A DNA stretch of 64,000 nt from Escherichia coli (GTDB lineage: Bacteria; Pseudomonadota; Gammaproteobacteria; Enterobacterales; Enterobacteriaceae): the NCBI RefSeq assembly GCF_051903065.1, contig NZ_CP178438.1, one strand, 5' to 3'. Shown here piece by piece: positions 22,201 through 25,200 of this stretch (positions are counted from its first letter, which is position 1; each line of letters starts with the position of its first letter). The position numbers are program-made.

Positions 22201-25200
22201 CGGCACGCCAGATAAAGCGCGGTTCGGTCGGATCTTTAACGAAACGCGCCACGATGGCATTCGCGACAATCACCGCGCCGAATACCGGAACCTGTGTCCA
22301 GGCGAACTGCGAGGTCGTTAAGCCGCCTGCGTCAATCAGGATCACCGGCGAGACAGCCACCCAACTCATCATTGGGATATAGCTTAAAGAGATGGTTGCT
22401 GCGCCAAAGAGGAACAGCCGATTGCAAAAGACATTACGAAAATCGCGCAAGACGCTTTTGGCGCTAAATGGAACCGCGCCGCGCTTCACCGTCTCTGGCA
22501 TCGCCAGCAGTAAGCCAACAAATGAGATAAAACCCATAACCGCAATGATGGCAAAAAGGACTTTCCAGTGCACAAAGTGCATCAGAGCTGCGCCGGAAAG
22601 CGGGCCAATAATCGGCGCAATCAGTACGATGGAGGTGATAATCGCCATCAACTTGATCCCTTTTGTCTGTCCGAACGCCTCCTGCACCGTGACATAACCA
22701 ACGGTAGCAATAAAACAGATACTGGTGCCCTGAATTGCACGCGCGATAAGAAACTGTGTCATAGACGTTGTGAACATTGTCGCGGCGCAGGCAAGGGTAA
22801 AAATGAGCGCCCCGGTAATCAGCACTGGCCTGCGGCCAATCCTGTCGGAAAGCGGCCCCAGCAGCCACTGCAATGCCATGCCTCCAGCGAGATAGAGACT
22901 GACGGCAGCCGGGGCCAGACTGACATCGGCATTAAAATCACGGACCACATTAATGATCCCTGGCTGGATCAGGTCCGTCGAAAGATAGGCGGCAAAGTCA
23001 TACAAAATCAACGCCATCGGGAAAAACAGCGTGGCGGCATGGCGGGCAAAAAAACGTGGCATAACAAACAACTCCTTGTCCGGAGAACCCCAACGGGGAA
23101 AACGAAATTCAATACCGTCGGTAATGACGAAAGGCAGGCGAGAAGGACAAATGTACTGAATTTCATGTAATCAACCACACTGCCTGTGAACACACAGACA
23201 GAGAAATACCTTCTGACTTCGGGTCAGAATGTATAACGATTACAAATAGTCATCAGTACATTACACCTCTTGAATTGATGGGTTGCATAGAAAATATACA
23301 CCTTAAGTGTAATTAAAATTTGCGGTTAATCAAAAGAGCGCGGTGGAAAGGGGAATATCTGCCGGGTACAGGAAATGTAAAACGCGAGCCTGTTTCCGGA
23401 AAAATGTATCGTTTGCAGACGAACAAAAATAGCCTGGAAAGCGCCTCGGGGAACGGGAAATTGCCGGGTGAGAATGGTTTTGTTAGTCGCTAAAGTCGGG
23501 CCATCTTATCAACAGGTGACGGATCGCCATGACAAACTTCACGACCAGCACGCCGCATGACGCATTATTTAAATCTTTTCTCATGCACCCTGACACCGCG
23601 CGGGATTTTATGGAGATCCACTTACCCAAAGATTTACGTGAACTGTGCGATCTCGACAGCTTAAAACTGGAATCCGCCAGCTTTGTCGATGAAAAATTGC
23701 GGGCGCTACACTCCGATATTCTGTGGTCGGTAAAGACCCGGGAAGGCGATGGCTATATCTATGTGGTGATTGAACATCAGAGCCGTGAGGATATTCATAT
23801 GGCCTTTCGCCTGATGCGCTATACCATGGCAGTGATGCAGCGCCATATAGAGCATGATAAACGCCGGTTGCTACCGCTGGTCATCCCGATGCTGTTTTAT
23901 CACGGTAGCCGTAGTCCTTATCCCTGGTCCCTGTGCTGGCTGGACGAATTTGCCGACCCGACTACTGCACGGAAAGTTTATACTGCAGCGTTCCCGCTGG
24001 TGGATGTCACTGTCGTGCCAGACGACGAGATTGTGCAGCACCGCAGAGTCGCCCTGTTGGAGTTGATCCAAAAGCATATTCGCCAGCGCGATCTAATGGG
24101 GCTTATTGATCAACTGGCAGTATTACTGGTTACAGGGTGCGCTAATGACAGCCAGATAACCGCGCTGTTAAATTACATTTTACTGACTGGCGATGAAGCG
24201 CGTTTTAATGAGTTTATCAGTGAACTTACCCGTCGAATGCCACAACACAGGGAGCGAATAATGACGATTGCAGAGCGAATTCATAATGATGGATGGCTGT
24301 TAGGGATGGAAAAGGGGAAAGAAGAAGGGGAACAACGCCTCCTTAGATTGCTTTTGCAGAACGGTGAGGATCCTGAATGGATACAACGATATACTGGACT
24401 TTCGGCAGAGCAAATGCAGGCATTAGAGCAACCCTTGCCTGAAAGCAAGCGCGATCCATGGATCGAGTACTAATCAGAGACTGATGACAAACGCAAAGCT
24501 GCCTGATGTGCTACGCTTATCAGACCTACATTACCTCTGCAATCTATTGAATTTGCGCGATTTGTAAGCCGGATAAGGCGTTCACGCCGCATCCGGTATG
24601 AACAAAGCACACTTTGCCTAAGCCATGCTGGAACGTGGCGATGCCCCTGCAAAGATAAAACGAGTCACAGGCGATTCGTGAGAGGAAATCAGGGGCCTCG
24701 CCACTAATTCGAAATTATTCTATTGCCCGATACACGGCCTCGCCAATTTGCTTCAGTGCTTCGCGATAGGTTTCGCTGAGCGGCAAAGCGCAGTTGATGC
24801 GCAGACAATTACGGTATTTGCCGGAAGCCGAGAAAATCGAGCCTGCCGCCACCTGGATTTTCATGCGGTACAGCTGCCGCGCGACGCAGACCATATCGAC
24901 CTGTTCAGGCAATTCTATCCACAGTAAAAATCCGCCTTTCGGGCGCGTAATACAGATTTCGCAGGGAAAATATTCCCGTATCCAGCAGGTATAAAGCGCC
25001 AAATTGCGCTGATAGATCTGCCGCATCCGCCGGATATGGCGATGATAGTGACCTTCCAGCACAAACGTTGCCGCCGCCATTTGCGTGGACGGCACATTAA
25101 AGCTGCTGATGGCGTATTTCATATGCAGCAGTTTATCGTGATAACGCCCCGGTGCGACCCAACCCACGCGCAGGCCTGGAGCAATACTTTTACTGAACGA

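Follow-up and report, generated by a model that had tools for sequence, protein, structure and literature searches.

An intact rpnD allele with a predicted nested antitoxin frame in an Escherichia coli chromosome, and the amber codon that interrupts the gene in K-12

All five rpn genes of Escherichia coli K-12 contain an internal translation start, from which a small C-terminal protein (RpnS) is produced; RpnS inhibits the full-length product, RpnL, a nuclease that is toxic (Zhong et al. 2023, PNAS; PMC10400941). The five RpnS proteins of K-12, which would include RpnD-S, were all detected in that study by tagging. Rpn proteins carry repeats of four residues, each unit having one hydrophobic residue together with charged residues or Gly, and the number of repeats varies among strains and sets the specificity between the L and S products. 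Phage defense was reported for a plasmid-borne rpn homolog, RpnP2 (PMC10400941), and nuclease activity was demonstrated in vitro for RpnA (PMC5350276). With regard to rpnD, Kingston et al. 2015 (PMC4498929) described a complete YjiP in most E. coli, attributed the stop in K-12 to a point mutation, and built a repaired K-12 allele, yjiPc. The repaired RpnD was toxic in recA-deficient cells and induced the SOS response, and its overexpression raised RecA-independent recombination 4.5- to 5-fold (PMC4498929, PMC5350276). In this study, we analyzed rpnD in a stretch of 64,000 nt from E. coli (assembly GCF_051903065.1, contig NZ_CP178438.1), referred to below as the window.

We consider it very likely that the window carries an intact, ordinary chromosomal rpnD allele which encodes a nuclease, RpnD-L, together with an antitoxin, RpnD-S, and which probably serves in phage defense. 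The open reading frame (ORF), its orthology, the functional residues, purifying selection, the signals of the internal start, the repeat classes, and the K-12 lesion were established here. The described RpnL/RpnS systems (RpnA, RpnB, RpnC, and RpnP2) have the same N-terminal nuclease domain and C-terminal repeat helix, and an in-frame internal start such as is predicted for the window gene. The blocking of L by S and the phage defense are described for these systems in the main text of PMC10400941, not specifically for RpnD.

The rpnD reading frame and its nuclease domain

In the ORF listing of the window, rpnD was a single frame running from ATG to TAA with zero internal stops, and no other long ORF was present in the 1.65 kb that separate mdtM from yjiR (Table 1). 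The Pfam family PF04754 (Transposase_31/YhgA-like) matched the encoded protein with an E value of 2.7e-86 and a score of 288.8 bits (cut-off, 21), covering profile positions 1 to 202 of 203. The NCBIfam model TIGR01784 (Rpn family recombination-promoting nuclease) scored 168.9 bits, well over its cut-off (52.1). The frame is a real gene and no chance ORF. Its 1.4-kb region was 100% identical to that of E. coli 23CRST027, isolated from human feces in Ecuador, in which the Prokaryotic Genome Annotation Pipeline (PGAP) annotates the identical sequence as an intact coding sequence with the same ends (WP_104773164.1). Across the 64 kb, the window differed from this strain by 4 mismatches in 48.6 kb and by one extra insertion sequence. 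A preliminary description of this DNA had proposed a single uninterrupted frame of 314 residues encoding a YhgA-like nuclease. The frame agreed exactly with the ORF listing, Pfam, NCBIfam, and the annotation of 23CRST027, and the nuclease identity agreed with both family models, which were matched above their cut-offs. What that description overlooked was the nested antitoxin frame and the difference in repeat number from K-12 (314 versus 306 residues). Overall, the window gene is a real, probably functional, and ordinary allele of a gene that was already known.

RpnA (YhgA) of K-12 is a paralog at another locus (feoC-rpnA-bioH) and showed 56% identity to window RpnD over the full length (E = 2e-129). 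Mutagenesis of RpnA identified D11, D63, E82, Q84, and R94 as required for activity and assigned a modulatory role to D165 of the PDDEI motif, which is invariant (PMC5350276). The residues D11, D63, E82, Q84, R94, and D166 of window RpnD align to all six tested positions, D166 corresponding to D165. The two proteins differ in that RpnA is without four-residue units at the point of their insertion and has a different, shorter C-terminal tail. The NCBIfam equivalog model for RpnA remained below its cut-off on the window protein (389 versus 583 bits), and a PDB sequence search with full-length RpnD returned zero matches at an E value of 0.01 or less.

Selection on the gene was evaluated by comparing the window with ten other rpnD alleles. 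Over codons 1 to 244, the ratio of nonsynonymous to synonymous substitution rates (dN/dS) ranged from 0.10 to 0.16 at dS values of 0.13 to 0.19. From codon 245 to the end, it ranged from 0.09 to 0.42, and dN was much higher. These values point to clear purifying selection on the nuclease domain, which supports a working gene. The protein had been called functional, conditionally, in the preliminary description, and both the conserved catalytic residues and dN/dS speak for this, their support being drawn from sequence only.

The names attached to the family would suggest a different reading, in which rpnD is the transposase (ISNCY-like/Transposase_31) of a self-moving element. Pfam calls the family 'Putative transposase, YhgA-like', the PGAP product name retains 'putative transposase', and the top NCBIfam match is labelled 'ISNCY family transposase'. 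However, this ISNCY equivalog scored below its cut-off (396 versus 583 bits), and neither terminal inverted repeats nor a target-site duplication were found flanking rpnD, whereas both are present in an IS903-type element located at another site of the window. The gene occupied one fixed chromosomal site in 16 of the 16 loci examined. Moreover, Zhong et al. (PMC10400941) obtained no evidence for autonomous transposition and rejected it, no autonomous transposase with this fold is known, and RpnA is a nuclease without demonstrated strand-transfer activity (PMC5350276). Given the lack of flanking inverted or direct repeats, the fixed location, and the ISNCY score below cut-off, a self-mobile transposase was rejected as extremely improbable.

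The K-12 lesion and the state of rpnD in other strains

The gene order yjiM-yjiN-mdtM, rpnD, yjiR-yjiS is common to the window and to the K-12 strains MC4100 and MG1655. The position of rpnD between mdtM (yjiO) and yjiR, which adjoins the Immigration Control Region (ICR), is kept in 23CRST027 as well. Because the gene order matches that of MC4100 and MG1655, the window gene is the ortholog of rpnD. The name rpnD, as given in the preliminary description, was thus borne out by synteny with MG1655 (mdtM-rpnD-yjiR-yjiS) and by top similarity to the K-12 gene. K-12 rpnD (b4584; formerly yjiP, b4338, and yjiQ, b4339) showed 90.2% DNA identity to the window across the whole 1401 nt and did not differ from it in the functional residues, the internal ATG, or its Shine-Dalgarno sequence.

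In the annotation of MG1655, rpnD (b4584) is a pseudogene at 4568998..4569918. The b-numbers in this order are b4337 (mdtM), b4584, and b4340 (yjiR), and the jump from b4337 to b4340 means that b4338 and b4339 were retired. A review table of 2022 enters yjiP and yjiQ under rpnD as alternative names, together with two UniProt accessions (PMC9504249), and an older gene list has the order yjiO; yjiP; yjiQ; yjiR (PMC10652928). The retired numbers, the synonyms, and the older list together confirm that the K-12 gene had been split into yjiP and yjiQ, as the preliminary description suggested. A frameshift, which it offered as the possible cause, was not found. The lesion is instead an in-frame nonsense change of CAG (Gln104) to TAG: the translation of MG1655 b4584 has one internal stop, at codon 104, and the pairwise DNA alignment with the window shows a single C-to-T change at the first base of this codon (column 339). 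The two genes are colinear and in frame over the whole 5' 765 nt and the C-to-T change is the only disabling one, so the frameshift was rejected. The same alignment answered the question, raised earlier, of whether MG1655 carries an equally uninterrupted ORF; its frame is interrupted by the TAG. The PGAP note on rpnD of MC4100 reads 'internal stop'. An exact K-12 76-mer containing the TAG was present in 339 of 5426 complete genomes, and all genomes among the matches listed were K-12 laboratory derivatives. B strains were one base off the K-12 76-mer around the TAG.

The change from CAG to TAG at codon 104 would remove RpnD-L and leave the RpnD-S frame. Most work on E. coli refers to K-12, which because of this amber codon is exceptional at the rpnD locus. 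Results obtained with K-12 'rpnD' therefore apply to the small protein alone, except where the stop was repaired. The amber suppressors supE44/glnV44 insert glutamine and are common in cloning strains. Since the amber codon replaces a Gln codon, it would be expected from established suppressor biology that such hosts yield some wild-type RpnD-L.

In total, 16 rpnD loci were inspected, 13 of which were from strains other than K-12 and were taken across the identity range. Nine of the 13 were annotated as intact, and the other four had independent lesions. An intact rpnD is the usual and ancestral state, as was already published in 2015. The earlier, conditional statement that this strain retains a functional RpnD is correct in that the gene is intact where that of K-12 is broken; 'retains', however, implies something special, whereas the intact frame is what most strains have.

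The lesions were of several kinds. In CH4793, rpnD had a 1-bp deletion, possibly an assembly error. Strain 319 (extracted locus L011:1262-1311) carried a 25-bp tandem duplication (ATGACGATTGCAGAGCGAATTCATA) beginning at the internal ATG. This duplication is common to O157:H7 genomes (H124-H126, H133), as judged from a +13 span signature; it frameshifts RpnD-L, and its second copy opens a complete RpnD-S frame of 66 residues with two repeat units. In MB52 (L012:~980-1105), a 125-bp insertion at about codon 150, a putative enterobacterial repetitive intergenic consensus (ERIC)-like element, resulted in two annotated fragments. In C41(DE3)/BL21-type strains (L016:1763-1800), IS1 lies directly after rpnD codon 255 (…HNDG), at the same junction as the varying repeat units, and in C41(DE3) the sequence downstream of IS1 is deleted up to a truncated helicase-related gene.

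Repeated independent inactivation, by the K-12 amber codon, the 25-bp duplication of O157:H7, IS1 in B strains, the 125-bp insertion of MB52, and the 1-bp deletion of CH4793, could mean that the intact frame of the window is likewise silent or recently decaying and no longer used. In line with this, a consensus scan of the + strand found zero sigma-70-like promoters in the 466 bp of intergenic DNA that precede the rpnD ATG. A silent gene is nevertheless very improbable, given that the low dN/dS over the nuclease domain at this level of dS reflects long-term purifying selection, that all functional residues are conserved, and that most strains have a complete gene, both among the loci inspected here and in the literature.

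The RpnD-S frame was left open in four of five pseudogene alleles, those of K-12 and of the O157:H7 type included. As 244 of the 314 codons (78%) precede the internal start, this number equals the chance expectation, and selection for RpnD-S in pseudogene lineages was rejected as indistinguishable from chance with five alleles. Within this small sample, the region of the codon 255/256 junction had undergone gain and loss of repeat units, the 25-bp duplication from the internal ATG, and the IS1 insertion. It is quite doubtful that the junction is a general rearrangement hotspot and that, separately, orphan RpnD-S is retained under selection, when both are taken jointly. If this were true, an orphan RpnD-S could neutralize incoming rpnD alleles of the same repeat number.

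The flanks of the gene also varied. In strains B1172, H22, and 1002W03 (L013-L015), which have one-unit alleles, mdtM was missing and yjiN stood directly before rpnD. The right flank, yjiR, was replaced or truncated as well in H22 and 1002W03. These differences show that the borders of the rpnD-carrying segment vary between lineages.

The predicted nested RpnD-S frame and its four-residue repeats

The predicted start of the nested frame, Met245, is equivalent to Met244 of RpnA, which is the experimentally confirmed start of RpnA-S (PMC10400941). The colinear alignment with RpnA extends through the rpnD-S region. A candidate internal promoter is located approximately 87 nt upstream of the rpnD-S start, a position that would agree with the reported initiation of transcription inside each of the K-12 rpn genes (PMC10400941).

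The first repeat unit begins at residue 256, 11 residues after Met245. In the described RpnL/RpnS systems the repeats begin 8 to 20 residues past the RpnS Met (PMC10400941), a range that includes the value found here. K-12 rpnD has one unit (YIKG) and 306 codons, compared with three units and 314 codons in the window, and the 24-bp in-frame difference is due to the two additional units. The difference in length from K-12 is hence the known polymorphism in repeat number. In addition, the last ~12 residues of K-12 RpnD (…ERERYSWLKS) differ from those of the window protein. Tandem Repeats Finder detected nothing in the repeat region because the DNA sequences of the 12-nt units have diverged too far.

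Alleles with one (YIKG), two (WLLG-REEG), three, and four units were observed in E. coli, the last with WLLG-RERG-RKEG-KEEG or with a -KVEG ending. Their frequencies were assessed with a 324-nt query spanning the repeats, using 60 rows taken at even intervals from the ranked list of the 4231 genomes that matched. The class was read from the length of the match span, a reading checked on representative loci only, and the shares are span-based estimates. Four units were the most frequent (20/60, about 33%), followed by the three units of the window (17/60, about 28%) and one unit (16/60, about 27%). Two units were found in 2/60 (about 3%), two units with the 25-bp duplication in 4/60 (about 7%), and a partial match in 1/60 (about 2%). 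The three-unit class of the window is common among complete E. coli genomes that bear rpnD.

Table 1. Positions of rpnD, its internal features, and neighboring genes (window coordinates unless a locus is named)
Feature	Position	Strand	Evidence or remark
mdtM	21830..23062	-	Flanks rpnD
rpnD full-length frame (RpnD-L), 314 residues plus TAA	23529..24473	+	ORF, PF04754, TIGR01784, RpnA identity, coding sequence ends in 23CRST027
Transposase_31/YhgA-like domain, residues 8-210; PD-(D/E)XK core and PDDEI motif	23550..24158	+	Pfam match, RpnA residue mapping
Codon 104, CAG (Gln); position of the K-12 amber codon and old yjiP/yjiQ boundary	23838..23840	+	b4584 translation, pairwise alignment
Codon 104 of MG1655 rpnD (TAG)	L003:6308-6310		Extracted MG1655 locus
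Candidate internal sigma-70-like promoter, ATGACA-18 nt-TAAATT, TG before -10	24145..24174	+	Consensus scan, weak
GGGAG, Shine-Dalgarno-like, 6 nt upstream of the internal ATG	24250..24254	+	Sequence read; identical in MG1655 (invariant block)
Nested in-frame rpnD-S, Met245-Tyr314, 70 residues, predicted antitoxin	24261..24473	+	Met245 aligns with RpnA Met244
Three four-residue repeat units, residues 256-267, strain-variable	24294..24329	+	Allele alignment, span census, description in PMC10400941
yjiR	24715..26127	-	Flanks rpnD on the other side
Type I restriction-modification system in the ICR	R 27064-30327, S 30422-31771, M 31761-33380		Annotation of 23CRST027
Further 'restriction endonuclease' in the ICR	33444-34610		Annotation of 23CRST027
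BrnT/BrnA toxin-antitoxin pair	34807-35383		Annotation of 23CRST027

Probable role of rpnD and its neighborhood

RpnD-L would be a DNA endonuclease of the PD-(D/E)XK type that depends on Mg, has low sequence specificity, and is toxic in excess. RpnD-S, translated in frame from Met245, would bind the C-terminal helix that it shares with RpnD-L and render the nuclease inactive, so that the two products would make up a toxin-antitoxin pair of the gene-within-gene kind. Pairing of L and S would be set by how many four-residue units this helix contains, which differs by strain. Phage defense is the likely role, and stimulation of RecA-independent recombination may be a by-product of the cleavage of DNA. 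The nuclease activity, the toxicity, the action of the antitoxin, and the role in defense are proposed by analogy with published results for RpnA, RpnB, RpnC, RpnP2, and the repaired K-12 RpnD.

The genes around rpnD fit a role in defense. It has been reported that rpn genes are enriched near defense genes (PMC10400941). In the window, rpnD is 2.6 kb from a type I restriction-modification (R-M) system, and within 12 kb of it there are this type I R-M system, a further restriction endonuclease, BrnT/BrnA, and SymE/SymR.

Alternatively, the main role of rpnD could be housekeeping recombination and gene acquisition, by which the adjoining ICR is replaced, rather than phage defense as a toxin-antitoxin system. 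The increase in RecA-independent recombination by overexpressed repaired RpnD would agree with this, as would the location of the gene: its position next to the ICR was the reason for its first study (PMC4498929, PMC5350276), and in the window it likewise borders an R-M island. On the other hand, deletion of rpnA-D left basal recombination unchanged, and YjiP failed to direct replacements toward the ICR (PMC4498929, PMC5350276). The nested antitoxin frame and the variability of the repeats are also better explained by a conflict system. Recombination as the main role therefore seems unlikely, although recombination and defense do not exclude each other.

It should be noted that, besides the lack of a promoter match upstream of rpnD, several points weigh against a toxin-antitoxin pair acting in defense. 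Promoter-like sites in the region were no more frequent than expected by chance (2 found versus 2.5 expected), which applies to the candidate internal promoter. Under the conditions of Zhong et al., only RpnB-L, RpnC-L, and RpnE-L were detected (PMC10400941); RpnD-L is prevented in K-12 in any case because of the amber codon. Phage defense was demonstrated for RpnP2 only and would extend to RpnD by analogy. In RpnL/RpnS systems, RpnS is described as a dimer with a three-helix bundle that neutralizes its cognate RpnL. In a PDB sequence search, the C-terminal segment of 70 residues matched the RpnA-S crystal chain 7TH0 weakly (E = 0.048). Designed ankyrin-type repeat proteins ranked above 7TH0 and were rejected as homologs; these spurious matches arise from an 'LLLQNGADP'-like motif in the segment. 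PADLOC-DB 2.0 (2023) had no matching model, and its library appears not to contain Rpn. Finally, the function of the window allele itself is deduced from its DNA and protein sequence.

Some further observations concern the surroundings of rpnD. The content of the ICR (27064-35383) differs from the mcrBC-hsd-mrr set of K-12. The antitoxin small RNA SymR (RF01809) was found at 26844-26920 (+) with 91.7 bits in Rfam (gathering score, 61), overlapping the 5' end of symE at 26511..26849 (-). As SymR was found together with symE, a SymE/SymR type I toxin-antitoxin pair is present. In the Rfam scan of positions 22000-28000, SymR was the only match, and nothing was detected within or adjoining rpnD. 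Between rpnD and yjiR, at ~24478-24619, there is a multicopy sequence resembling repetitive extragenic palindromic (REP) sequences or bacterial interspersed mosaic elements (BIME), with a median of 17 matched places per E. coli genome.

Farther away, an IS903-type insertion sequence of the IS5 family (1057 bp) with terminal inverted repeats is located at 14339-15395. It is flanked by a 9-bp target duplication (ATAAGGAGT) at 14330-14338 and 15396-15404, and its transposase ORF (14371..15339) matched NF033579 with 357 bits. A gene with an SdiA-regulated domain (yjiK-like) starts ~62 bp downstream of the element, which is absent from the otherwise near-identical 23CRST027. In the 4-hydroxyphenylacetate degradation operon, hpaG (48426-49715, -) is a pseudogene with an internal stop according to the annotation of 23CRST027.

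For the annotation of the window, rpnD should be listed as an intact gene, probably with two products, RpnD-L and the nested RpnD-S, and not as a transposase. Beyond correct annotation, the significance of the finding is small. The alleles with one, two, three, and four repeat units are natural variants with which the published model of L/S specificity could be tested on RpnD.

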